NCBI GenBank assembly: GCA_963675515.1
Contig: OY776328.1
Coordinates: 1,170,001 to 1,202,000, forward strand
Reading direction: 5' to 3'
Length of the DNA: 32,000 nucleotides
Origin: Coprobacillaceae bacterium
GTDB taxonomy: Bacteria > Bacillota_I > Bacilli_A > Erysipelotrichales > Coprobacillaceae
The notes below the pieces were generated by a model that saw only the letters and a program-made list of their open reading frames with translations, had not been told where the DNA came from and searched no databases. The translations under genes and the position numbers were made by a program. Positions 6,693 through 32,000 of the stretch are shown here, one piece after another. The first letter of the stretch is position 1, and every line of letters begins with the position of its first letter.

Positions 6693-7088
6693 AAACCAAA
6701 GACGGAAGGAAGAGTAGAAATACCTAAACCTAATGGAGAATTACGACCATTGGGAATACCGACGATGCATTATAGACTGATTCAACAGATGTTCAAACAG
6801 ATACTTGAACCAATCTGCGAAGCAAAGTTTCATAAGCATTCATATGGTTTTAGAGACAAACGCTCAACCCATAATGCTTTGTCAATATGTTGCCACATCG
6901 CCGATAATACACACAATCACTATATTGGTGATTTGGATAACGAATCGTTCTTTGACAATGTGGATATACATCTTGGAGTTTGTTGTTGGTGCCGAAAAAA
7001 TATTACTTATATCCAAAAATCCAATGTTTGGCAGTTTTTCATAAGGGACGATAATCAAATATTGAACTCACATGTATATGATGGTTAG
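6693..7088 (+). pseudogene. Group II intron reverse transcriptase (IEP) fragment, truncated at both ends
   Basis: The reading frame gives ...EIPKPNGELRPLGIPTMHYRLIQQ...SYGFRDKRSTHNAL...GDLDNESFFDNVD, which are RT motifs 0-3 of group II intron IEPs. There is no proper start (stop at 6690-6692), the ORF ends long before RT motifs 5-7 and the X domain, and the expected D in DRLIQ is replaced. Confidence 0.7.
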
Positions 7089-7902: not shown

Positions 7903-8853
7903 ATGAAAAGCAACGGAACATATATGCGGTTAGAAAAATTTGAAACAAAAGATGAAGTGTTCGAATTTATTAACGACAGCACAAAAAAATTCAGCAATCA
8001 TGAAAAATATGATGGCATGGTTCAAAAATTGGTGAATTACAAAGTTGAAAATGCTTATAGCTACAAGGAACGAAAAACAGGAACCACCTACAAAACTATC
8101 TTTGCAGACAAGATCAAAGTGGCAATACCTCAATGTTTAGATGAGTGGCAGTATGAAGAATTTATCAAGAAATACCTGCTCTCGTTTGATGTAAGACTGA
8201 AAAACTTATTGTGGATTGCCAAGATAGTCAAAGAAGGAAAAGGTACTTATTTTGTGGCAATGGTGTTTAGCAGGGGGGTATACTCTAAACCAGTAAGCGA
8301 ACAAGATACCTATGATCAAGATTACTATTACAAAAATGGTAGACGGTGTTCGCCGGATAATCCTGATGGCGTTTTGAAAAGGAAGAAAGGTGAGCTAAAA
8401 TTCAATAAAGACGGAACACCAGTGATGATCACTAGAACGGTTCAAAGAGTAGAGGAGCGAATATTCAGAGTAAAGAACATCTACAAACTGACAGAAAAAT
8501 TTAAAAAATTGATTGTCAAGGTAGCCAATGAAATGTGTGAGGATTCTTTTTTCCCGACAAAAATATCGAAACATACAATTACTGATGATTGCTCTAAAAG
8601 CCTCCGAAATTCGTTCAGAAAGCGAAATAGATTTATCGATACAATTATCAATGAAAAGTTAATACGGTTCCAGGATGGAATCATTCAAGCGAAGATCAAC
8701 GAGACAGAAGAAGATATCTTCGCTTTTTTTGATGAGCTAGTTGATAAAGTTAATGCAATCTTATTTGGTGATAGCGGAAAAGAGTTCAACAACCTTGAAG
8801 GCATTATGGATAACTGGTGGGAGCAAAATATCCTGGGTTATTCAATGGCTTAA
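7903..8853 (+). CDS. Hypothetical protein, possible replication/mobilisation initiator (function unproven)
   Basis: 316-aa ORF at the head of the rep/primase/par block. The segment KVAIPQCLDEWQYEEFIKKYL weakly recalls the ALPxEL..eq motif of MobA/MobL (MOBQ) relaxases, but no His triad is present. Coding confidence is high; functional confidence is low. Confidence 0.75.
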   Translation: MKSNGTYMRLEKFETKDEVFEFINDSTKKFSNHEKYDGMVQKLVNYKVENAYSYKERKTGTTYKTIFADKIKVAIPQCLDEWQYEEFIKKYLLSFDVRLKNLLWIAKIVKEGKGTYFVAMVFSRGVYSKPVSEQDTYDQDYYYKNGRRCSPDNPDGVLKRKKGELKFNKDGTPVMITRTVQRVEERIFRVKNIYKLTEKFKKLIVKVANEMCEDSFFPTKISKHTITDDCSKSLRNSFRKRNRFIDTIINEKLIRFQDGIIQAKINETEEDIFAFFDELVDKVNAILFGDSGKEFNNLEGIMDNWWEQNILGYSMA

Positions 8854-8962
8854 GAGAAAATGATATATTGTACATTTAAGAGAAACTTAAATGAATATTT
8901 ACCAAAAAAGATTAAATAAATACCATATATATCTAAGAGAATCTTAGATGTAAATTTACCAA
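8851..8962. repeat. Iteron-like direct repeats (2 full units plus 1 partial)
   Basis: Unit 8877-8905 is TAAGAGAAACTTAAATGAATATTTACCAA and unit 8934-8962 is TAAGAGAATCTTAGATGTAAATTTACCAA; 25 of 29 positions match and the period is 57 bp. A shortened unit starts at 8851 (TAAGAGAAAATGATATATT). Each unit contains a small internal IR (TTAAG..CTTAA / CTAAGA..TCTTAG). Confidence 0.6.
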
Positions 8963-8983
8963 CGAGGGAAGGAAAATTTTATT

Positions 8984-9220
8984 ATGAGACACATAATTTT
9001 TATGGATCGCAAACTGTTTAATAGCGAGCTGGTCTTGAAACGCACGCAAGATTACTTGACGTATCGCCAAGAAGATGACTTGTTGGATATCAAGATATCC
9101 CCTAAGTTCCGTTACAATCTGGTTAAAGTCAAAATCAAGAATGAACCGGTAAAAAGATATGAATTTAAGGGGATATTTCATTATAAGAATTGGAGAACTA
9201 TTGATGGATATCAAGGATAG
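8984..9220 (+). CDS. Hypothetical small protein (78 aa)
   Basis: It has a good SD (GGGAAGGAAAA), the same orientation as its neighbours, and its end overlaps the primase start by 17 nt. It is preferred over the antisense ORF 8933-9214. Confidence 0.5.
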   Translation: MRHIIFMDRKLFNSELVLKRTQDYLTYRQEDDLLDIKISPKFRYNLVKVKIKNEPVKRYEFKGIFHYKNWRTIDGYQG

Positions 9221-13441: not shown

Positions 13442-14807
13442 AGTAGTGTCAATATTTTTGTGTAAATTAGTAAAATTAGTTCTTATGATGATCTTGATTA
13501 TTCGTCTTCCATCAGAAACCATCGCTCGTATGAGATTCCTTTGAATCCCTTGTGGGTATGGTTCATGAATTTTTGGTTATATTGCTCAAATTGCGAAACG
13601 ATGTATTTCTCCGCAGCCTCCTCATTTGGGAATTGTTCCTTAGCTTTGATTTTTCGCTTGAGCTGTTTATTGAAACCCTCAATCAGATTGGTTGTATAGA
13701 TGCTCTTGCGTACCGATTCAGGGTACAAATAGAAAGTGAATAGGTTCGAATTCTCTCCGAGTAATTTCGCCACTTTTGGATATTTTTGGCCCCACTTGAT
13801 GGTGAACTCCTTGAGCTGTTCACTTGCCGCCTCTTCGGTTTCACAATGGTAGACGCGCTTAAAATCCTGTGCAATCTCGCTACGGTCTTTCACTCTTACT
13901 TTGGCTACAATGTTTCTTGAAACATGCACCAGGCAACGTTGAATTTTGGCCATCGGAAAAGTGTCTTCAATGGCGTTCTCAACACCAGTTAGCCCGTCAG
14001 TGCAAAACAAAGCAACCTCTTCCATGCCGCGTGTTTTGAACTCTTCGAACAATTCCCGCCATGTTGTCGCAGATTCGGTTGGTGCAATTGAATATCCGAT
14101 TATTTCCTTTGTTCCCTCCAAAGTTATGCCTATGGCGATATGAACGGCCTCTTTAGAGACTGTATCTCGTCGCAAAGGAATGACAGTAGCATCAGTATAA
14201 ACAACTGCGTATTGCTTGTTTAACGGGCGATTTTTAAAGGCTTCAACGTGGGCGACTATTTCCTTGGTGATATTGGAAACAGTCTGTCTAGAGTATTTCT
14301 TACCGTAGATGGATTCAACAGTTTTAACAATGTCACTGTTGGTCATCCCTGAATTAAATAGGTCAATGACAGTGTTGGTGGTAGCCAGATCGTTTCGTTG
14401 ATATTTGGGAACCAAAGGTGAATCAAAGCCACCTTGACGGTCACGTGGTATGCGCAGGTTCAATACACCATATTTGGTGTTGTAATCACGATTGTAATAG
14501 CCATTTCTTGAATTTGAATTCTCAGATCGGTCGTATTTCTCGTAATCAAGAAAAACGGTAAGTTCGGACTTCAAAATATCGTTGATGGCATTCTCCAATT
14601 CGCTCCGGAAAAGTTCTGATACTACTTGCTCAAAAGCTGGCAGATTATTATCATTTGATATTAGACTTCTAAGTAAAGTTGTTGTAAAATAGTTCATGGG
14701 TGTAATCCTCTCGTAAATTGTTTTCGCAGAACTAATTTTACAAGGGTTACGCCCTTTTTTCTACTTGAAAGTTGAAATCCTATTTACACAAAATATTTTA
14801 CACTATC
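13442..14807 (-). mobile_element. Intact IS256-family insertion sequence with an 8-bp target-site duplication
   Basis: The terminal inverted repeats are AGTAGTGTCAATATTTTTGTGTAAAT (13442-) and the reverse complement of the right end, GATAGTGTAAAATATTTTGTGTAAAT. They are flanked by identical TATATATT at 13434-13441 and 14808-14815. The element holds a single transposase ORF. Confidence 0.85.
13498..14697 (-). CDS. IS256-family (Transposase_mut) transposase
   Basis: 399 aa with family hallmarks: RNGYYNRDYNTKYGVLNLRIPRDRQGGF, ..TDATVIPLRRD.., FCTDGLTGVENAI and QRCLVHVSRN. Confidence 0.95.
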   Translation of the reverse strand: MNYFTTTLLRSLISNDNNLPAFEQVVSELFRSELENAINDILKSELTVFLDYEKYDRSENSNSRNGYYNRDYNTKYGVLNLRIPRDRQGGFDSPLVPKYQRNDLATTNTVIDLFNSGMTNSDIVKTVESIYGKKYSRQTVSNITKEIVAHVEAFKNRPLNKQYAVVYTDATVIPLRRDTVSKEAVHIAIGITLEGTKEIIGYSIAPTESATTWRELFEEFKTRGMEEVALFCTDGLTGVENAIEDTFPMAKIQRCLVHVSRNIVAKVRVKDRSEIAQDFKRVYHCETEEAASEQLKEFTIKWGQKYPKVAKLLGENSNLFTFYLYPESVRKSIYTTNLIEGFNKQLKRKIKAKEQFPNEEAAEKYIVSQFEQYNQKFMNHTHKGFKGISYERWFLMEDE

Positions 14808-15347
14808 TATATATTCTTTGCTTGCACTATTTTCTAGGTTGTGTAGTTATCTTTTTAAATTTACTGTTTTGTAAATATATGTAGCATAATACTAGAGCGA
14901 TGACAACTGGTAATACCAGTAGAGAGGGCTAATGAATATGCAATATACAAGTAAATTTCAAGAACATAGCAATAATAGGATTTACATATTCGGAATTTTA
15001 TTGAAACATAATATATTAATAATGCAGAAAATTGCGCTATAGTAACATAAATTATGATTTGTCTAATATGGTACCGTAGTACCATATAAATTAATGGTAA
15101 TTAAGAGTATGATGTTAATGTTATTTTTTGTTAAATAATGTTCAATGGTTCAGGGAGTGAATACTAAATATGTATTCTTTCATCTAGGTGGTGTTGAGTA
15201 TTTTCTAGTGCTTTACGGATTTATTATTTGTATAGTTGGTTCTATGAAGGCGGATCATTGAAGTAAAATGGTAAATTGTGAAATTTTATTTGAATGACCT
15301 CGTAACTCAGGTTGAAAATTAACTTATTGAAATGTCGGAATTTAATC

Positions 15348-15457
15348 GGTCAAAATCCAACAGATTTCTACATTTCAGATTAGATATCTAATTTTCGCAA
15401 ACCTAAAGAGAAGCTTCCTGTGTTATATGGTCATTCAAAAATTTTATTGATTGGAGG
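15348..15457 (+). repeat. ~110-nt intergenic direct repeat, copy 1
   Basis: It aligns with 22510-22620. Identical blocks include ATTTCTACATTTCAGAT (15364-15380 and 22528-22544), TTTCGCAAACC, AAAGAGAAGC and CCTGTGTT. It ends at the SD of the Cys-rich gene copy 2. Confidence 0.65.
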
Positions 15458-15462
15458 ATAAG

Positions 15463-15600
15463 ATGATGGGAAAAACATTTAAGCCGAACGATTGTGAAAA
15501 TTGCCCTCATAATCGGGGTTACAAAAAGACAAATACATGTATGCCTTGTGGGTACTCGTTCTGTTGCTTTGAAAAACTGAAGATGAATGAAAATAAATAG
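15463..15600 (+). CDS. Small Cys-rich zinc-ribbon-like protein (45 aa), copy 2; not in the ORF track
   Basis: My translation is MMGKTFKPNDCENCPHNRGYKKTNTCMPCGYSFCCFEKLKMNENK. The SD GGAGG is at 15453-15457. The first ~48 nt, including 9 nt upstream of the ATG, are nearly identical to 10121-10168. Confidence 0.6.
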   Translation: MMGKTFKPNDCENCPHNRGYKKTNTCMPCGYSFCCFEKLKMNENK

Positions 15601-15622
15601 AATATCTAGAATTACAAATAAT

Positions 15623-15651
15623 GGGCGGAGTTGAGTTAACAACTACCGCCC
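15623..15651 (+). terminator. Hairpin downstream of Cys-rich gene copy 2 (weak terminator)
   Basis: GGGCGGAGTTG pairs with CAACTACCGCCC with one bulge and an AGTTAA loop. There is no strong T-run. Confidence 0.35.
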
Positions 15652-15748
15652 TAAAGCATTTACAGGCATTTATCAATTTGATTTAAAATATTCAAATTAT
15701 ATGTTTCTAACTAGTGTGATCTAAATTAATTATACGAGGAGAGTAAAT

Positions 15749-16042
15749 ATGGGCAAAAAAATATATGTAAGCAATAGGTGGTTGATTAATAATTTCATGT
15801 ATCTAGAAAATTACAAGTATCACGAATATTTCAAAAAAGATATGTTTGAAAACGAATATTACACTTGGCGTGATGAGGTTGCTACCATCCATACAAGATG
15901 GAATTTTATTGGTGAACAAACATCAACAGGAATAAAGGTGTTCACTCCTGCTAATAATATCCAATCAGTTATAGACCGTGTACTGACTAGCAACCATAAG
16001 AAATATGCTAAGTTAATTACTTCAAGTGCAAACAAAAAATGA
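15749..16042 (+). CDS. Hypothetical protein (97 aa)
   Basis: The SD GAGGAGAG is correctly spaced. The protein is rich in aromatic residues and I recognise no family. Confidence 0.6.
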   Translation: MGKKIYVSNRWLINNFMYLENYKYHEYFKKDMFENEYYTWRDEVATIHTRWNFIGEQTSTGIKVFTPANNIQSVIDRVLTSNHKKYAKLITSSANKK

Positions 16043-17138: not shown

Positions 17139-19994
17139 ATGAGAGAATTCAAAATATTCAAAAAATTTATATTTATGTTTTCGTTGGCATTGATGTTGCT
17201 TGGAACAATGAGTACAGATGTCTATGCAGCTTCAAGTATTACGTATAATGGAAAAGTCACTTCAACATACACAACAGCCGGGGATTTTACCGTTGATGGT
17301 CAGCAGGCATTTTGTATTGAGCACGAAAAATCTACAGCTGGAACTAGAACACCTATACTTGGAACAGAGATATATTCAAATGAAATCTTTAGAAAGGCAC
17401 TTTACTATGGTTGGAGCGGGGCTGGACAATGGAGCGGTTTTACATCACGATCTGACGGTATTGTGGCTACATCATTGGTTTTGTCGCACATTTATAATGG
17501 TACAGATATCAAACACGATTCCCAAGCATTTTGGGATTTTTTGCAGACAGCACCAAACGTGCCGTCGACATTTTTAAAGCTTTCAGATTCAAATTTAAAG
17601 TCATATGTATCAGGAAGTTATCAAAGGACAGAAGATACAAGACTGACAGCGATTGGTGTTACTGGTAATGGTAGTGTTACATTCCCATTACCAAGTGGAA
17701 TTACTTTAGTGAACGTTTCAACCGGAAAAACCTATACCGGTAGTGCTACCATCGGCAATGATGAGAAGTTTTATCTTAGGGCTCCGCTATCATACAGTGG
17801 CAATTATGACAGCGGAACACTATCAGGAAATAATATTTTTAAATTTCAAGCTTTAATATTCAAAACTTCCGCAAGTGTTCAAAATTTAGCAATAGGAAAG
17901 CCGATTTTTGACCCGACTGTTACAGTCAGATTAACCGCTGAATTTGCAGCTCAATTAGGGTCAATCAGTGTTACAAAATCATTAAGCAGTGCCGATAGTG
18001 AAAAGGCAACAGTATCCGGTGCCGTTTATGGTTTATATGCAAAAAACAATATCTCAAACGGAACATCAGTAATCTACAATGCCGGTGCATTGATTGAATC
18101 AAAGACTACTGATAGCCTTGGAAAACTGACTTACAGCAATCTTTATGCAGGTAACTATTACGTAAAAGAAATTACAGCCCCTGCATACACTAATTTGAAC
18201 AGCACTCAATATGACGTTACGCTTTCATATTCAGGTAGCATGGACGTAGATGTATCAACAAGTAATGATATCCAAAGAAACAGCGTATCTATTTCAAAGG
18301 TTGATGTTGCAGGGGAAGAAATTCCGGGAGCAACAATGACCCTGATTGATGAAGGAGGAAATACCATCGATGAATGGGTTTCAACTAATGAGGTTCATGT
18401 GATCAGTGGATTGCCAGTAGGAAATACTTATACCTTGAAAGAGGAACTTGCACCACATGGTTATTTAATCGCTAGTGATATCACTTTTACAGTGGGGACA
18501 GATAACCAGGTAATTGAAATGATTGACACTCAACCTGCAGGTACTATCAATCTGACAAAATCATTAAGCAGAAGTGACAGCGAAAAAGCTACACCATTCG
18601 GAGCTGAATATTCTTTATTTTCAAGTGCTGATGAACTGATTGCAACAAAAATAACAGATGAAAACGGTAAGTTATCTTTTGAGGGATTGCCACTAGGTGA
18701 TTACTATGTTCAAGAAACAAAAGCGCCTGCATATACAATCCTGAATGGCAAACAATACAACGTGTCTTTGGCTTATCAAGATCAAAATACCGCAGTAGTC
18801 TTTGAAGAATTGGCAACTAGAAATGATGTAGTGACTAAAGATTTGTCAATTTCTAAAGTTGATGTTGCCGCTGATGAGATTGTCGGAGCGACAATGGAGC
18901 TTTACGATAACAACGGTGATTTGATGGTTACATGGGTTTCAACTGATAAGCCTTATATCTTGGGTAATGTTCCAATCGGGAATACTTATACCTTGAAAGA
19001 AACAATCGCCCCTAATGGTTATGTGTTATCGACTCAAGAAATCACCTTCACAGTTCTTGATGATGGGAATATTGAACAGTCTGTAGAAATGATCGATAAG
19101 GTTGTAAGCATCTCGAAAACCAATCTTACTGGTGAAAAGGAATTAGCCGGAGCTACATTGCAAGTCGTTGATGTTGACGGAAACGTTGTTGACGAATGGG
19201 TTTCAACTGACGAAGCACATAACGTTTCAGGATTGATTGAAGGTAATGATTATTCGTTGGTTGAAGTTGTTGCCCCAGAGGGATATGTATTGTCTACTGA
19301 CAGTATTGATTTCACCGTTTCAAATGATAAGGAAGATCAATACATCGTTATGAAGGATAATTACGTTGCCGTATCAAAAGAAGAAGACAACGGAACTAAA
19401 GTAAGCGGAGCTACAATGCAAGTTCTTGATGTTGATGGTATCGTTGTTGACGAATGGGTTTCAAGTGATGAAGTTCATTATGTATCAGGATTGACTGTTG
19501 CCGGTGAATACACATTGCATGAAGCACAAGCGCCTAAAGGTTACTTGCTTGCTGAAGATATGACTTTCACCGTGGATACCATCGATTCTGTAATCACCAT
19601 GATTGATGATTACACTAAAGTGACAGTCACCAAATATGACATCACAAACAATAAGGAATTGGAAGGAGCTAAACTACAGGTAATAGATTCTCAAGGGAAT
19701 ATCGTTGATGAATGGATTTCTACCAAAGATCAACACTTGATCAAATACCTTGAAATCGGGCAGACATATACCTTAAGAGAAACAATCTCCCCTAAAGGTT
19801 ATTCAATCTCTCAAGATGTCAAATTTACGGTAACTGAAACCGGAGTTGAACAACCGATCGCAATGTATGATGAATTATTGCCGGTGTCTATTATGAAAAC
19901 CGGTGATGAATCACCAGTCTTGTTATTCACTGGTTTGGGAGTAGTTTCATTGGCTACCTTGATTTTTGTATCGAGAAAGAAAAATGAGGAATAG
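17139..19994 (+). CDS. Large cell-surface adhesin with prealbumin-like (SpaA/Cna-B type) repeats and a C-terminal sorting-signal-like tail
   Basis: 951 aa. The signal peptide ends ..STDVYA. Two repeats are of the type SVTKSLS.ADSEKAT..GA.Y.L......YYV.E..AP.Y. Five repeats are of the type SISKVD..G.E..GATM...D..GN.VDEWVST.E.H..SGL..G..YTL.E..AP.GY......ITFTV. The C-terminus is IMKTGD, then a hydrophobic helix, then RKKNEE. Confidence 0.9.
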   Translation: MREFKIFKKFIFMFSLALMLLGTMSTDVYAASSITYNGKVTSTYTTAGDFTVDGQQAFCIEHEKSTAGTRTPILGTEIYSNEIFRKALYYGWSGAGQWSGFTSRSDGIVATSLVLSHIYNGTDIKHDSQAFWDFLQTAPNVPSTFLKLSDSNLKSYVSGSYQRTEDTRLTAIGVTGNGSVTFPLPSGITLVNVSTGKTYTGSATIGNDEKFYLRAPLSYSGNYDSGTLSGNNIFKFQALIFKTSASVQNLAIGKPIFDPTVTVRLTAEFAAQLGSISVTKSLSSADSEKATVSGAVYGLYAKNNISNGTSVIYNAGALIESKTTDSLGKLTYSNLYAGNYYVKEITAPAYTNLNSTQYDVTLSYSGSMDVDVSTSNDIQRNSVSISKVDVAGEEIPGATMTLIDEGGNTIDEWVSTNEVHVISGLPVGNTYTLKEELAPHGYLIASDITFTVGTDNQVIEMIDTQPAGTINLTKSLSRSDSEKATPFGAEYSLFSSADELIATKITDENGKLSFEGLPLGDYYVQETKAPAYTILNGKQYNVSLAYQDQNTAVVFEELATRNDVVTKDLSISKVDVAADEIVGATMELYDNNGDLMVTWVSTDKPYILGNVPIGNTYTLKETIAPNGYVLSTQEITFTVLDDGNIEQSVEMIDKVVSISKTNLTGEKELAGATLQVVDVDGNVVDEWVSTDEAHNVSGLIEGNDYSLVEVVAPEGYVLSTDSIDFTVSNDKEDQYIVMKDNYVAVSKEEDNGTKVSGATMQVLDVDGIVVDEWVSSDEVHYVSGLTVAGEYTLHEAQAPKGYLLAEDMTFTVDTIDSVITMIDDYTKVTVTKYDITNNKELEGAKLQVIDSQGNIVDEWISTKDQHLIKYLEIGQTYTLRETISPKGYSISQDVKFTVTETGVEQPIAMYDELLPVSIMKTGDESPVLLFTGLGVVSLATLIFVSRKKNEE
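18283..19875 (+). repeat. Diverged tandem coding repeats (about 85-90 codons each) inside the adhesin gene
   Basis: Five VDEWVS-type units, with one SVTKSLS-type unit interleaved, are visible in the translated sequence. Confidence 0.7.
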
Positions 19995-21142: not shown

Positions 21143-21424
21143 ATGGAACTAAAAGTCGGGTGTTGGATAACTATCAATCTTAATGAACGAGATGAGCGGG
21201 CTTTGGTATTATGTATTAAAAAGGAATCCCTGGTTATTATGCTAAAAAATCATTATATTGTAGTTTTTAATTGGAGTGTGATTGATGATAGGATTGTCTG
21301 GGAATACGGTAAACGATTTGATGATTTTATGGAAATGTCAGAATACGTTGTTGAAAAATCTAGCTATCTTAAACATTTCGATAGTGTATTGAATGGTCAA
21401 AAAAAGAGTGGATCACCTAAATAG
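21143..21424 (+). CDS. Hypothetical protein (93 aa), paralogous to the N-terminus of the 21689 ORF
   Basis: It starts directly after the preceding stop codon. It shares MELKVG......IVW.(Y/H)G..FDDF...SEY with the product of 21689-22417. Confidence 0.7.
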   Translation: MELKVGCWITINLNERDERALVLCIKKESLVIMLKNHYIVVFNWSVIDDRIVWEYGKRFDDFMEMSEYVVEKSSYLKHFDSVLNGQKKSGSPK

Positions 21425-21688: not shown

Positions 21689-22417
21689 ATGGAACTCAAA
21701 GTCGGTGATGTTGTAAAAACTTATGCCAGTGAACAAGCGATGATTCTCAATGTCGAAGATGGCTATGCCGTACTTATACAAAATAATGAGTATGTCATTG
21801 CCAATGGTTACAGCGAATATGATGGTAAGATAGTTTGGGATCATGGCAATTACTTTGATGATTTTACCAGTCTGTCAGAGTACATTACCAAAAATTACAT
21901 AACCAAAGATTCAAAGAAAATGTTGTCATTTCTAATTGACGTAGGTAAAGACAATTACGATGAACTGATCAAGGGATTCATGGCTTATGAACTTGACGTT
22001 GAAAACAAATATGCTTTAGACAAGGCTTTTGAACATATGATCAGGTTCGATGATTGTATCAATTTTGAAAATTCAAGTGAGTACATATATGATAATGTTA
22101 GGCCGGTTATCAACCATTATGTCAAAGAATTGGTCGAAACCATTAAGGAGTTAGACCCTTACGAATATATGGATCGCCAAACCAAGACTGTTGAGGAACT
22201 GTGTCAAGATTACTTTGACGATATCATTCATAACCGAAAACAAGAAATAATTTCCGGTATCGACAACATGATCAGCTTGTACCGGGAAGAAAACGAAGTT
22301 GACGACACCATCAAAAAACTGGAAAAGCTAAAAGAAGATTTGAGTGATGATTATTTTGAACCTTACAAAATATCAATGGAGAAAGCAAAATCAAAAGAAT
22401 CATCATATGAGAGATAG
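21689..22417 (+). CDS. Hypothetical protein (242 aa) with an N-terminal MELKVG-type domain and an acidic helical C-terminal extension
   Basis: The SD is GGGAGA. Both the DNA around the start (AGATAAATGGAACT[A/C]AAAGTCGG) and the protein N-terminus are paralogous to 21143-21424. Confidence 0.75.
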   Translation: MELKVGDVVKTYASEQAMILNVEDGYAVLIQNNEYVIANGYSEYDGKIVWDHGNYFDDFTSLSEYITKNYITKDSKKMLSFLIDVGKDNYDELIKGFMAYELDVENKYALDKAFEHMIRFDDCINFENSSEYIYDNVRPVINHYVKELVETIKELDPYEYMDRQTKTVEELCQDYFDDIIHNRKQEIISGIDNMISLYREENEVDDTIKKLEKLKEDLSDDYFEPYKISMEKAKSKESSYER

Positions 22418-26787: not shown

Positions 26788-27120
26788 ATGGATAAGGAAA
26801 GTAAACTTGCAGTCTATATCATACCTAAGAACATCAAGAAAGGGAAAATGTATTTTGGCCGATATAAGCTAACGGATATTATCATAGTCGGGTCGTCATT
26901 GCTGACAATGTTTGTGGGTTCGATTTTGAGCCTGGCTATTCTAAAAGGTAAGCTGATGTTTGTTTTTATATTGATATTTTTACTTGTAGGGGGCGTGGGC
27001 ATGTTATTAACCACGCCCTTTCCCAATTACCATAACGTGAAAGGTTATCTGGTAGAACTGATTGAACATTTCAAATCGGAGCGAAAATATATCTATGGCG
27101 GTAAATACTATGAAGAATGA
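26788..27120 (+). CDS. PrgI family (VirB3-like) T4SS membrane protein
   Basis: 110 aa. The N-terminal ..PKNIKKGKMYFGRYKLTDIII.. is followed by two TM helices. The gene lies directly upstream of, and overlaps, the VirB4-like ORF. Confidence 0.7.
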   Translation: MDKESKLAVYIIPKNIKKGKMYFGRYKLTDIIIVGSSLLTMFVGSILSLAILKGKLMFVFILIFLLVGGVGMLLTTPFPNYHNVKGYLVELIEHFKSERKYIYGGKYYEE

Positions 27121-27769
27121 CAAGCAACAAAAAAAGCAGGACAAGCTGATTAAAAAACGGAAAGGCAAACTACGAAAGACTTTTGAATGGCTGGCCATCG
27201 AACGGATTGAACAAGATCAGGTGGTGCTAAAAGAAAAATCGAAATACTACTACGTCAAAGGTATCCGGGTTGAGCCTAGAAACATTTACATGATGAATGA
27301 TATTGAGCGTAATCAGCTGATCGAATCGCTGACCAGTGCCCTCAACCGAATCAACTTCAAGTTCTATTGGAAGTTCGTATATAACACGCCTTCACTGGAC
27401 ACCCAGAACGAAAAGCTGATCAAACTCAATGAACATTATCAGGCTGATAATCACAGGTTGGATTATTTGACCCAATTATTCCTGGATTTCCATGAGTGGT
27501 ATGTAGACAGCTTCTATGAGATATCGTTTTACCTGGTTGTGGTCGAAGACGAGAAATACTTGGAGAAAAGATTTGACGATCTCTACAAATACTTTAGAAA
27601 CAGCCAGCTGGTAGTCGAGCCAATGAACAAAAACGATTATGTCAACATGATCAAGTATGACTTCAACAACGACAACATAAACGAGTACTATTTTAGCCGC
27701 CTGCTCAATTATGAGAACTATCATTTTAACAATTTGAATCTGGGAATGTCTGATCATTCTATAATCTAA
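27110..27769 (+). pseudogene. VirB4-family T4SS ATPase, N-terminal ~219 codons only (truncated)
   Basis: The sequence ..TFEWLAIERIEQDQVVLKEKSKYYYVKGIRVEPRNIYMMNDIERNQLIESLTSALNRINFKFYWKFVYNTP.. follows the N-terminal layout of Gram-positive VirB4/PrgJ/TraE-type proteins. The ORF stops at 27769 with no Walker A/B region, and the DNA that follows is unrelated and AT-rich. Confidence 0.55.
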
Positions 27770-27904: not shown

Positions 27905-27976
27905 GTGTATTAATACTTGCGTTGAGTTATTAATTTTAGGTTTTTGATTTTAAACTATAATAAGAGGAGAAAGATA

Positions 27977-28966
27977 ATGTGTTTTAGAAAGTTTATGGTA
28001 TCGATTTTGGTGCTTTTTATAATGATCTCTTTTTGGGAATTTCCTGTTGAAGCTAAGAGTAAATATGTCTATTCAACTAACACTTTTGAAATCAAAAACA
28101 AAGAGGCCAAGGCAATATATGATGGTCTGATGAAAAAAAATAATGATAATAAGAGTCGGGGAGATGATGGTAGAGAATTTGAAAGTCAAAATTTTGGTGA
28201 AGACGATCTTGTGAATTTTAAGAAACTAGTAAAAATTTCCGACGGTAATAGCAATTTTAATAGTCTATATCAGTATCAAGATGAAAATGTTCTAGACATT
28301 ATCGTATACGATGAATCCGATAATTCTTACGTTGGAATTGAAGAGGATAAAGTAAATAATACTGCAATACTATACATAGATGATGAAATGTATAGTATTT
28401 GTGCAAGTGACAATGATATTTCGCTAAAAAGTGTAGCCGGAGATACGATAAATATTTATGAGGAAGTTTTGGATAGCTCTTCAAATGAAGCGCCGATAGT
28501 TAGCACAGCTATATTGAGTCCAAATGAGGATAGCTATGATGTTTCTGTTCAAGCAATCGTTCCTGAAACCACTTCATCTATTTCTTGGGTTTTACTTGGA
28601 GGTCCATACCACTCCACTACTAAAATTCTTTTTGAAGTTTTACAAATAATTGGAACTGTTGCAGGGATGGTAACCCTTAGCGTTACTTCTCCTATATTGG
28701 GTGTTGTATTGATGACATATGGAGTTGCTGTCAGCGTAGGGGCATCTTTTTACCCAACTATACATTTAAAAATATATCAATACGGCGCATCAGATTGTCT
28801 CACATATATTAGGCAAAAAAAATACTATTACGGAGCCTACAGCGAAGTCAGCGGTACTTGGTATGAACCTATTAAAACCACTAGTGGAGCACTCAAATAT
28901 ACATATTCATATTTTCATAGTGTCAGGCCAGATTACACTGGCAATCCTGCGTGTTTAAAGTATTAG
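27977..28966 (+). CDS. Secreted protein of unknown function with a hydrophobic, Cys-containing C-terminal domain
   Basis: The ORF is trimmed to the ATG at 27977, with the SD AAGAGGAGA. The signal peptide is MCFRKFMVSILVLFIMISFWEFPVEA. The N-terminal part is acidic and low in complexity. The C-terminal ~130 aa contain Gly/Ala/Val-rich hydrophobic stretches and cysteines in ..ASDCLTY.. and ..NPACLKY. Confidence 0.8.
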   Translation: MCFRKFMVSILVLFIMISFWEFPVEAKSKYVYSTNTFEIKNKEAKAIYDGLMKKNNDNKSRGDDGREFESQNFGEDDLVNFKKLVKISDGNSNFNSLYQYQDENVLDIIVYDESDNSYVGIEEDKVNNTAILYIDDEMYSICASDNDISLKSVAGDTINIYEEVLDSSSNEAPIVSTAILSPNEDSYDVSVQAIVPETTSSISWVLLGGPYHSTTKILFEVLQIIGTVAGMVTLSVTSPILGVVLMTYGVAVSVGASFYPTIHLKIYQYGASDCLTYIRQKKYYYGAYSEVSGTWYEPIKTTSGALKYTYSYFHSVRPDYTGNPACLKY

Positions 28967-28967
28967 T

Positions 28968-29402
28968 GTGAAAAAAATTATTCTATTATTGTCTCTATTT
29001 GCATTATCGGTGAGTATGTTATTTGCTGTTTTGAAGCAAACTACTGACACTAAACTAATTACTGTTGAAATTTATGAAATTCCAGGATGTTATTATTGTA
29101 AAAATGCAATAGATGATTTTTCACTATTGCTCACTGATAAGTACGGAAAGTTTGTCGAAGTAGAAATAATTAATGTAGAAGATGGGGATGGATCAAAAAA
29201 ATATTCTAAGTTAATAAATTCTATTGATGAATTTGGCAAAGAATATGAGAATTATTTTCCATTGATTAATATCGAAAATTACTTTGTAGTTTGTGGGTAT
29301 GATTATTATTTTGGTGAAGAAATAATTAACGATATGCGAAGACTAGATGCCGGAATGCATTTGGGCGTCCAACTTGAAGATTATCGATATGTATGGAGGT
29401 GA
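28968..29402 (+). CDS. Membrane-anchored thioredoxin/glutaredoxin-fold protein with a CYYC active-site motif
   Basis: 144 aa. The GTG start lies 1 nt after the previous stop. An N-terminal TM anchor is followed by ITVEIYEIPGCYYCKNA, the beta1-CxxC-alpha1 arrangement of the Trx fold. Confidence 0.7.
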   Translation: MKKIILLLSLFALSVSMLFAVLKQTTDTKLITVEIYEIPGCYYCKNAIDDFSLLLTDKYGKFVEVEIINVEDGDGSKKYSKLINSIDEFGKEYENYFPLINIENYFVVCGYDYYFGEEIINDMRRLDAGMHLGVQLEDYRYVWR

Positions 29403-29406
29403 TAAA

Positions 29407-29655
29407 ATGACTAAACAGAAATGTCCATATTGCAATCAGGAAATGTTAGAGGGTTTCATTGAGAATACCGCTTGCCCACTTGCATGGACTCCAAAAGGTA
29501 AAAATCGGCCATTCTTAAAACTTCATAGAATTGGCGATTATGAAGATGGGATGGGTAATTATGTATTCCCATATGGTTGGCGTGTAAAAGCTTATAAATG
29601 TGATAGTTGTAACGTAATTATCATAGATAATCTGAATAAAAGTAGCAAACACTGA
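29407..29655 (+). CDS. Small zinc-ribbon protein (DUF6487-like; two CxxC pairs)
   Basis: The ORF is trimmed to the ATG at 29407, with the SD GGAGGTG. The protein begins MTKQKCPYCNQEMLEGFI and contains ...YKCDSCNVIII. Confidence 0.7.
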   Translation: MTKQKCPYCNQEMLEGFIENTACPLAWTPKGKNRPFLKLHRIGDYEDGMGNYVFPYGWRVKAYKCDSCNVIIIDNLNKSSKH

Positions 29656-29914
29656 ATTTATCCAGCAAAAATAAATAATCGCAATTATTACAATTGTAAT
29701 TATTGTAGTCAAAACGAAGTGGATCGAAAATGCAATTTATTATTTATGAAATTTTCTATCGCAATTTTTGAAGAAATAGCAAAGATAATTTTGAAAATTT
29801 ATCGTCAAAAGCAGGTAAGGAACTATCCTTGCCTTTTTATATGTATTTGCAATAAATCGGCTTTAGCCACAATGATTACAATAATAGAGATAATAGTAAA
29901 ATTATGGAGATTAT

Positions 29915-31911: not shown

Positions 31912-32000
31912 ATGGTAATGAGATTTGGTTATGAAATTGAGAGGAAAATATTGAATCACCAAATGTTCATTTTAAATCGAGTATATGAAGATCGGACAAT
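31912..32000 (+). CDS. Hypothetical protein, 5' partial (runs off the window)
   Basis: The ATG is preceded by the SD AGGAGGAAAA. The frame is open to the window end (MVMRFGYEIERKILNHQMFILNRVYEDRT...). Confidence 0.45.
   Translation, partial: MVMRFGYEIERKILNHQMFILNRVYEDRT

Follow-up and report, generated by a model that had tools for sequence, protein, structure and literature searches.

We analysed a 32,000-nucleotide stretch of a Coprobacillaceae genome (GenBank assembly GCA_963675515.1, contig OY776328.1, positions 1,170,001 to 1,202,000; henceforth the window, numbered from its first letter) and focused on three consecutive forward-strand genes, here called P1, P2 and P3, which form a compact cassette inside the conjugation gene cluster of a low-GC mobile element, between a truncated N-terminal fragment of VirB4 (directly upstream) and ArdC. 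P1 (27977-28966; 329 amino acids, aa) begins with an ATG seven bases after a GAGGAG Shine-Dalgarno sequence (27964-27969) and ends with the TAG at 28964-28966. P2 (28968-29402; 144 aa) starts with a GTG one nucleotide past this stop and ends with the TGA at 29400-29402, while P3 (29407-29655; 82 aa) starts with an ATG four bases past the P2 stop, its own Shine-Dalgarno sequence (GGAGG, 29395-29399) lying within the 3' end of P2. The GTG start of P2 restores a transmembrane (TM) helix that is present in all homologues. As a reference we used a sister element (L001; L-numbers denote retrieved loci) which has 88.6% nucleotide identity to the window and is collinear with it over 7.4 kb. The ratios of nonsynonymous to synonymous substitution rates (dN/dS) between the two were 0.18 for P1, 0.15 for P2 and 0.57 for P3 (the last from few changes). 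Since these ratios are low and homologues of each gene occur in other loci, the three open reading frames (ORFs) are real genes under purifying selection, not chance ORFs.

The intergenic region upstream of P1 (27770-27976, forward strand) is about 95% conserved in the sister element and contains, besides the Shine-Dalgarno sequence, a TATAAT (27956-27961) and, 74 bp upstream of P1 (27890-27903), a perfect palindrome of 14 bp (AGATAGCGCTATCT), which is identical in L001. A promoter scan found no more sites than in shuffled sequence, and we therefore treat the P1 promoter as putative. Downstream of P3, a forward-strand stem-loop with a T-run (29813-29834), conserved in L001, resembles a terminator; given that the number of terminator-like sites was not above the shuffled expectation, it is only suggestive. 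A 24-bp near-palindrome (CAATTATTACAATTGTAATTATTG) also lies just 3' of P3 (29682-29705), with three substitutions in L001, and the two palindromes may be operator or transfer-related sites. No flanking inverted repeats delimiting the cassette were found.

The N-terminus of P1 reads MCFRKFMVSILVLFIMISFWEFPVEA followed by KS, and has the features of a signal peptide (residues 1-26, ending in VEA before KS, with a Kyte-Doolittle hydropathy peak of 2.16). Residues 29-200 are acidic (20% Asp/Glu vs. 8% Lys/Arg), and the C-terminal part includes a Gly/Ala/Val-rich hydrophobic segment at residues 216-262 (codons at 28622-28762, forward strand; Kyte-Doolittle values of at least 1.6 at sliding-window centres 225-250), in which Gly and Pro positions are conserved across the family. 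An exhaustive profile search recovered 99 representative clusters of P1 relatives, 70 of them at E<=1e-10, nearly all of them full-length proteins of about 280-330 aa with signal peptides. P1 itself had zero matches in Pfam, NCBIfam, PHROGs and PADLOC, a search of 74 family members against Pfam gave no recurrent match, and the P1 profile found nothing below E=1.3 in the PDB. The P1 family is unannotated and undescribed.

We modelled P1 with AlphaFold on a 74-sequence alignment and obtained a predicted local distance difference test score (pLDDT) of 86.2 and a predicted TM-score (pTM) of 0.78; when the alignment comprised the 17 close sequences only, pLDDT was 47. The model comprises an N-terminal domain with two helices (42-56 and 75-87) and a seven-strand beta meander (94-165), a disordered acidic linker (175-198) and a conserved C-terminal domain (204-329), in which a strand (204-217) leads into two hydrophobic helices (219-230 and 239-254) and then into four more strands. 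Identity of close relatives to the window P1 averaged 64% over the C-terminal domain, 41% over the N-terminal domain and 22% over the linker. A Foldseek search with this model gave no credible match in the PDB (best E 0.14) or in BFVD (one weak match, E 2.9e-03, TM-score 0.14). P1 thus has no detectable solved relative in these searches; we make no claim of a new fold.

The C-terminal domain of P1 contains two late cysteines: Cys274 (codon 28796-28798, forward strand; ..SDCLTY..), in an SDC motif that is invariant in the cysteine-containing subfamily, and Cys326 (codon 28952-28954, forward strand), three residues from the end in the C-terminal ..ACLKY, which follows the pattern G-x-x-C-[LM]-x-Y. 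Across the 74 aligned family members, which are phylogenetically non-independent, both columns hold cysteine in 51 sequences and neither does in 22, and the single member with one cysteine has an aberrant C-terminus. The cysteine-free relatives stop at ..RPY, just short of the second cysteine. Because the two cysteines are present together or absent together, they almost certainly form a structural disulfide that pins the C-terminal tail of P1.

P2 starts with a hydrophobic helix (Kyte-Doolittle 2.77) preceded by Lys-Lys, and carries a CYYC motif at residues 41-44 (29088-29099). This is consistent with the active site of a thioredoxin fold, where a CxxC follows the first beta strand and opens helix 1. 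Residues 97-100 (FPLI) occupy the place of the cis-Pro loop. The CxxC cysteines and F-P-[LV]-I were invariant in all seven homologues (with CYYC, CPLC, CPIC and CVSC as motif variants), the N-terminal hydrophobic helix was common to all of them, and their conserved blocks followed a beta-alpha-beta-alpha-beta-beta-alpha spacing. When searched against the PDB, the P2 profile matched 1nho, a glutaredoxin-like thioredoxin, at E=8.5e-5, and gave weak matches to 1fo5 (E=0.035) and to Grx3, thioredoxins and the actinobacterial oxidase MdbA (0.18-0.6). No Pfam model matched at E<=0.1; at the same threshold the only NCBIfam matches were Uxx_star (20 residues, E=0.028) and TusC fragments, and the PedC/BrcD model TIGR01295 was not matched. 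P2 is probably a thioredoxin-like CxxC protein with its N-terminus inside and its domain outside, i.e., facing outward.

A census of cysteines in the proteins of the element bears on what such an enzyme would act upon. There were none in the 307-aa secreted protein or in the VirB6-like, pilin-like and VirB3-like proteins and one in a 951-aa adhesin, compared with 2-6 in each cytoplasmic protein; given that the other exported proteins have 0-1 cysteines, P1 is the sole visible client for an extracytoplasmic oxidoreductase. Mirror-tree correlations of sequence identities, which show co-inheritance only, were r=0.89 for P1-P2 and r=0.64 for P1-P3. From the adjacency of the two genes, their co-inheritance and the cysteine census, we infer that P2 would oxidise the cysteine pair of P1. 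At another locus with the same three genes (L002), the trio is directly followed by a gene for a 240-aa secreted protein (8265-8987) with a C-terminus (..DGTCLAYYKW) that recalls the tail of P1, and which could be another client of the thioredoxin-like protein. Neither this protein nor a 261-aa secreted protein at the locus of a distant relative (L020) was supported by hhalign as a paralogue of P1.

P3 matches the Pfam family DUF6487 (PF20097) at E=1.1e-14 (55 bits vs. a cut-off of 24; model positions 1-64 of 67). It has two CxxC motifs whose four cysteines are conserved in homologues, which also keep the motifs G-[YF], A-W-[ST]-P and G-x-[RK]-V, and its hydropathy profile contains no hydrophobic segment. 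P3 is therefore best described as a predicted zinc-ribbon protein that is likely soluble and cytoplasmic. A P3 homologue lies directly downstream of P1 relatives in about 10 independent loci. Where the two were compared over the same set of loci, P3 had 28-39% identity and the C-terminal domain of P1 51-68%, meaning that P3 evolves much faster. The DUF6487 family has at least 337 matches, all of them small stand-alone proteins with no domain fusions, and a literature search for DUF6487 or PF20097 found no paper mentioning it. A second DUF6487 gene (P0166), located elsewhere on the 2,881,239-bp contig that also holds P0017, P0260 and P0263 of the window, is 79% identical to P3 and thus far closer to it than are the P3 orthologues of the other trio loci; no second P1 was detected in this genome.

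These results bear out much of the initial annotation, which had described three tightly coupled ORFs (the GTG one nucleotide past the preceding stop, and a Shine-Dalgarno sequence inside the end of the preceding gene, all at the coordinates given above) encoding a protein with a signal peptide, an acidic N-terminal half, a Gly/Ala/Val-rich hydrophobic C-terminal part and two late cysteines, a membrane-anchored CYYC thioredoxin-like protein, and a DUF6487-like double-CxxC protein. Its statement that no described system of this kind was recognised is likewise upheld by the database searches with P1 and by the absence of DUF6487 from the literature searched.

To examine how the three genes are distributed, we searched every fetched locus with hidden Markov models for P1, P2 and P3. 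Close relatives of P1 formed 16 clusters only in a word-index search of 5.8 billion proteins, and their hosts, where assignable, were all Erysipelotrichaceae or Erysipelothrix. The order P1-P2-P3 was found between the VirB4 N-terminal fragment and ArdC in the window and L001, immediately downstream of genes for an intact VirB4 (779 aa) and a lysozyme-like/CHAP hydrolase in L002-5, upstream of pilin-like and VirB6-like genes in L006, beside IS110 and integrase genes in L009/10, and at chromosomal sites associated with insertion sequences (IS) in L023 and L026. P1 followed directly by P3, with P2 missing and the cysteine pair kept, was found in L014/L027/L007 (between IS110 and IS1595), in L028 and in L011-13; the upstream ORFs of L027 resemble, by eye, ordinary chromosomal metabolic genes. 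Two of these loci, L011 and L012, represent a single circular plasmid of 5,179 bp, assembled from two sequencing runs and opened at different breakpoints; the ends overlap by 30 nt, and once rotated the two sequences show 0 mismatches. The plasmid encodes a 458-aa Rep-like protein (with no Pfam match), YefM/YoeB, the P1 homologue and an uncalled DUF6487 ORF (L012 3209-3421), such that P1 and P3 are its only evident cargo, and there are no type IV secretion system (T4SS) genes on it. Even a P1 relative of merely 24% identity still has the start of a DUF6487 gene downstream (L017), while P2 was present only in the sub-clade nearest the window (43-91% P1 identity). Neither PLSDB plasmids nor IMG/VR viral contigs contained P1 relatives, PLSDB gave no match to P3, and one phage-labelled contig (L032) had a DUF6487 gene with the P1 relative absent.

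The initial annotation had regarded the three genes as a self-contained cargo trio. The trio does recur in the order P1-P2-P3 in several other loci at unrelated positions, and the word cargo suits a cassette that is portable, with the refinement that here it is located inside a conjugation cluster; the trio is, however, not the unit of conservation. In the loci compared, the conserved core is P1 and P3, with P2 as an optional add-on. Since P2 is missing in three lineages that retain the cysteines, it is not obligatory for P1 and would be a helper, not a requirement.

Within the cluster of metagenome loci to which L023 and L026 belong, P1 is frameshifted in three of four near-identical contigs (L023 1065-1330 compared with L024, L025 and L026) by single-base losses in poly-A runs (A6 to A5, and additionally A5 to A4 in L026). 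In L026, the only broken-P1 contig that extends far enough, P2 and P3 are intact downstream. Signal-peptide-less P1 versions of 248 aa are common. These broken copies could reflect toxin loss with the partner genes kept, phase variation or decay, or homopolymer sequencing error. The window P1 has an A8 run at about 28131-28139.

The placement of the cassette on the same strand within a conjugation cluster, between a VirB4 fragment and ArdC, raises the question of whether P1, P2 and P3 are accessory subunits of the element's Gram-positive T4SS, with P2 in a role like that of TrbB. TrbB is a thioredoxin-fold disulfide isomerase that is encoded within the transfer region of F-like conjugative plasmids and assists F-type T4SS assembly (PMC11315126); P2 resembles it in being a thioredoxin-type protein of a conjugative element, encoded inside the transfer region. 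TrbB, however, works in the periplasm of Gram-negative bacteria as a soluble protein, and its clients are T4SS subunits rich in cysteine, whereas P2 travels with P1, and the other exported T4SS proteins of the element here offer it no cysteine. In addition, the position of the cassette differs among three conjugation clusters, P1 and P3 occur on the 5,179-bp plasmid and between IS elements with no T4SS gene, and VirB4 is broken at the point where the cassette lies in the window and L001, which makes the cassette look inserted, not native. We consider this explanation highly improbable and rejected it because the cassette changes position and occurs without T4SS genes. For the same reasons, i.e., three positions in conjugation clusters and occurrence on a plasmid and at IS sites without a T4SS, the cassette is portable and autonomous, with no fixed role in the T4SS.

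The neighbourhoods of distant P1 relatives offer a further line of evidence. Where DUF6487 is missing, the slot directly downstream of P1 is taken by other small proteins, namely an overlapping 93-aa protein with three TM segments (L020), a 111-aa protein with four TM segments in Coprobacillus (L021/22), or single-TM proteins of 49-54 aa (L016 and L018/19). A divergent LytTR response regulator and a HATPase_c_5 kinase adjoin the relative in L021, a subtilisin-type S8 protease lies two genes downstream of it in L018/19, and an agr-like LytTR/kinase/AgrB cluster is found about 2 kb downstream of the trio in L002. Small membrane proteins, LytTR regulation, a protease and carriage on a small plasmid together point to the pattern of Gram-positive bacteriocin or secreted-toxin loci.

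One of these neighbourhoods could be read differently: the L020 relative lies about 3.6 kb from a Wadjet system (JetABCD), near GIY-YIG and helix-turn-helix genes, and mobile elements often carry defence genes, so that the cassette might be an anti-phage or superinfection-exclusion module at the cell envelope. Given that this support comes from one locus only, that P1, P2 and P3 have no PADLOC match and that the P1 family is absent from IMG/VR viral contigs, we regard a defence role as very unlikely.

Another possibility is that P1 is a harmless secreted carrier of a hydrophobic ligand, or a factor in gut colonisation or host interaction, in which case the hydrophobic helices would line or plug a cavity, P2 would be a folding aid and P3 a zinc-ribbon regulator of the operon. 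Among the non-significant Foldseek neighbours of the model, lipid-binding folds of the beta-barrel or half-barrel type predominate (LolA, lipocalins, EPDR1, ORP1), the family of about 99 clusters has both mobile-element-borne and chromosomal members, and the palindrome conserved 5' of P1 might serve as an operator. On the other hand, no lipid-binding match was significant, P1 is the main cargo of the 5.2-kb plasmid, and a carrier role leaves unexplained the obligate small downstream partner, which swaps between DUF6487 and 1-TM, 3-TM and 4-TM proteins. We give this explanation a small chance.

The reading we favour, tentatively and at somewhat less than an even chance, is that P1 is a large Sec-dependent, membrane-active antagonistic protein resembling class III bacteriocins, with P3 providing producer protection or maturation. 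The initial annotation had likewise suggested a bacteriocin- or toxin-like effector with an accessory or immunity factor. The evidence is contextual, namely the small-plasmid cargo and the small membrane proteins, LytTR systems and S8 protease beside distant relatives; the size and signal peptide of P1 also fit a class III bacteriocin, defined as an exported antimicrobial protein of >10 kDa with cognate immunity. Under this proposal, P1 would be exported via Sec and its signal peptide cleaved after Ala26. The variable acidic N-terminal domain would be tethered by the disordered linker to the conserved C-terminal domain, in which a Gly/Ala/Val-rich hydrophobic helical hairpin would be shielded in a beta sheet and stapled by Cys274-Cys326. 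P2 would be tethered to the membrane, its CxxC domain facing the exterior, and would oxidise this pair in a host that largely keeps cysteine out of its other exported proteins, while P3, a translationally coupled cytoplasmic zinc ribbon and the conserved partner of P1, would protect or mature P1 in the producer. Once P1 has been released, and perhaps once a protease has removed the N-terminal domain, the hairpin would insert into target membranes, and the cassette would give its carrier element a competitive or addictive advantage. A more specific form of this proposal, in which P1 and its relatives form a new structural class of large, membrane-inserting bacteriocins that gut Firmicutes export through Sec, with a beta-sheet-caged glycine-rich hairpin and DUF6487 as the immunity or maturation factor, seems to us doubtful, though not negligible.

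Several points weigh against an antagonistic role. None of the bacteriocin or toxin models of Pfam, NCBIfam, PHROGs and PADLOC recognises P1, nor was a matching solved structure found. P3 appears to be soluble, with no membrane segment, and would be an atypical immunity protein against a membrane-active product, although those of the pediocin type are cytoplasmic. The DUF6487 family is much larger than the P1 family and is also found away from P1 relatives (as in L032), and P2 is absent from three lineages with P1 and P3 that retain the cysteines. The signal peptide was part of the modelled P1 sequence and may lie against the hairpin as an artefact, and the hairpin itself might alternatively hold P1 in the membrane permanently.

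This last point leads to an alternative in which P1 is a surface protein retained by the producer, with the 216-262 hairpin as its anchor and the beta-rich domains displayed for recognition, entry or surface exclusion, or adhesion; P2 would then fold P1, and P3 would regulate or assist it. The hydrophobic stretch of about 44-47 residues, with a central Pro/Gly turn, is long enough for a transmembrane hairpin, but AlphaFold gives two short helices (12 and 16 residues) in a compact domain (pTM 0.78). Most trio loci lie in or beside conjugation genes, and in L002 the cassette follows a CwlT-like hydrolase, the position at which ICEBs1 has the gene for its exclusion lipoprotein YddJ. However, the position inside conjugation clusters is not fixed, and the cassette is found both on the 5.2-kb plasmid without T4SS genes and in chromosomal IS-flanked sites. 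Such a surface protein could have its partner subunits in the small membrane proteins encoded beside distant relatives; these relatives are nevertheless chromosomal and lie near quorum-sensing-type regulators and a protease. On balance we consider a surface role unlikely, while keeping it in view.

If P1 is indeed antagonistic, its closest parallels are with several known systems, none of which it matches in full. Accessory thiol-disulfide oxidoreductases are encoded in bacteriocin operons, as with PedC, BlpG(St) for thermophilin 13, and BdbA/BdbB for sublancin 168 in prophage SPbeta (PMC4919988). As in the cassette described here, class IIa operons with PedC and the other operons of this type place a secreted disulfide-containing antimicrobial beside an exported thioredoxin-fold CxxC protein, often on a mobile element (PMC4919988). 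Their products, however, are peptides of 37-62 residues with dedicated ATP-binding cassette (ABC) transporters, whereas P1 is a two-domain protein of about 300 aa that is predicted to depend on Sec; moreover, P2 matches neither the PedC/BrcD NCBIfam model nor a Pfam thioredoxin, and PedC-type operons are without a DUF6487 partner.

Dysgalacticin and streptococcin A-M57 are non-lytic class III bacteriocins of streptococci, large, Sec-dependent and plasmid-encoded, which disturb the membrane potential and have an adjacent immunity gene (PMC8308785). A small plasmid with an adjacent immunity gene parallels P1 and P3 on the 5,179-bp plasmid, with the activity of P1 being predicted, but no sequence relationship of P1 to these bacteriocins was found, and the immunity protein DysI is described as membrane-associated, whereas P3 is a soluble predicted zinc ribbon. 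EntV (enterocin O16), from Enterococcus faecalis, leaves the cell through Sec as a pro-protein; it depends for activity on a DsbA-type oxidoreductase, which forms its one disulfide, and on cleavage by a protease (PMC6606811). The disordered inter-domain linker of P1, and the S8 protease and LytTR systems beside its relatives, are parallels to this maturation route; unlike in the cassette, DsbA and GelE are not encoded with entV, and EntV is much smaller than P1 and unrelated to it in sequence. EntV is under quorum-sensing control via the LytTR regulator FsrA.

A mechanistic parallel may also be drawn with pore-forming colicins and other toxins of this kind, soluble secreted proteins that hide a hydrophobic helical hairpin and are accompanied by a small immunity protein encoded directly downstream (a multi-pass membrane protein for pore-formers). 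The 3-TM and 4-TM proteins downstream of distant P1 relatives match this immunity-gene arrangement, but the modelled hairpin of P1 is wrapped by a beta sheet instead of lying in an all-helical bundle and there is no fold match, so that the resemblance would be mechanistic only.

The mobile element that hosts the cassette has low GC content (30-39%) and occupies about 7.5-32 kb of the window, adjoining a flank of 41-49% GC that looks chromosomal. A fragment of an RVT_1 reverse transcriptase (6750-7088) lies where GC falls from about 45% to about 34% (around position 7000) and probably marks the edge of the element. A Mutator-family transposase is encoded at 13498-14697 on the minus strand. Further genes encode a Toprim/DUF3991 primase-like protein, a GerE regulator, a DUF6075 protein, a weak T4SS-pilin-like protein, a VirB6/TrbL-like membrane protein and the ArdC-type anti-restriction/zincin protein; ParA-like, ParB-like and SSB ORFs were identified by eye, and the counterpart of the last in L001 matches Pfam SSB. 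The 951-aa surface adhesin (17139-19994) combines a signal peptide and a C-terminal membrane anchor with seven SpaA repeats and a TED_2 thioester domain, and its sole cysteine (Cys59) falls inside the thioester-domain match. Two ORFs with no Pfam match, at 21143-21424 and 21689-22417, have a common N-terminal module (MELKVG..., IVWEYGKRFDDF and IVWDHGNYFDDF), apparently a local duplication within the element. No Rfam families were found in the window.

Directly upstream of the cassette region, a VirB3-like ORF (110 aa) and the VirB4 N-terminal fragment (235 aa) occupy 26788-27769 on the forward strand and match NCBIfam VirB4_plasma (model positions 2-94 and 96-292 of 894). Across the window and L001 (8813-9794), this pair of ORFs (110 aa and 219-235 aa) covers VirB4_plasma positions 2-309, and positions 293-886 of 894 are encoded in L001 by a separate 607-aa gene (13937-15760) about 4 kb downstream, with the cassette, two small ORFs and ArdC in between. 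Either a block of about 4 kb was inserted into virB4, or this family of elements uses a two-piece VirB4. The window and L001 are collinear through the ATG after ArdC and then diverge fully (MVMRFGYEIERK.. at window 31913-32000 vs. MDNTKALKSR.. from L001 13937 onward).

A secreted effector with a dedicated oxidoreductase and a small partner on a mobile element is a known kind of arrangement; what is new are the families involved and the pairing of P1 with DUF6487. Even without the toxin reading, our analysis defines a family of secreted proteins (about 100 clusters) for which there is a confident model and for which no solved relative was found, together with a disulfide supported by covariation and a conserved core of P1 and P3. 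If P1 is antagonistic, it would represent a new family of large bacteriocins from Erysipelotrichaceae, which are poorly studied gut bacteria, carried on elements that pass from strain to strain, and it would be relevant to strain competition in the gut and to the persistence of mobile elements. It would also provide a first function for DUF6487, a family with hundreds of members (if this function is immunity, many of them, e.g., the additional copy that this genome carries, would be orphan immunity genes), and an example of a mobile element that supplies its own disulfide-forming enzyme to hosts that avoid cysteine in their exported proteins.

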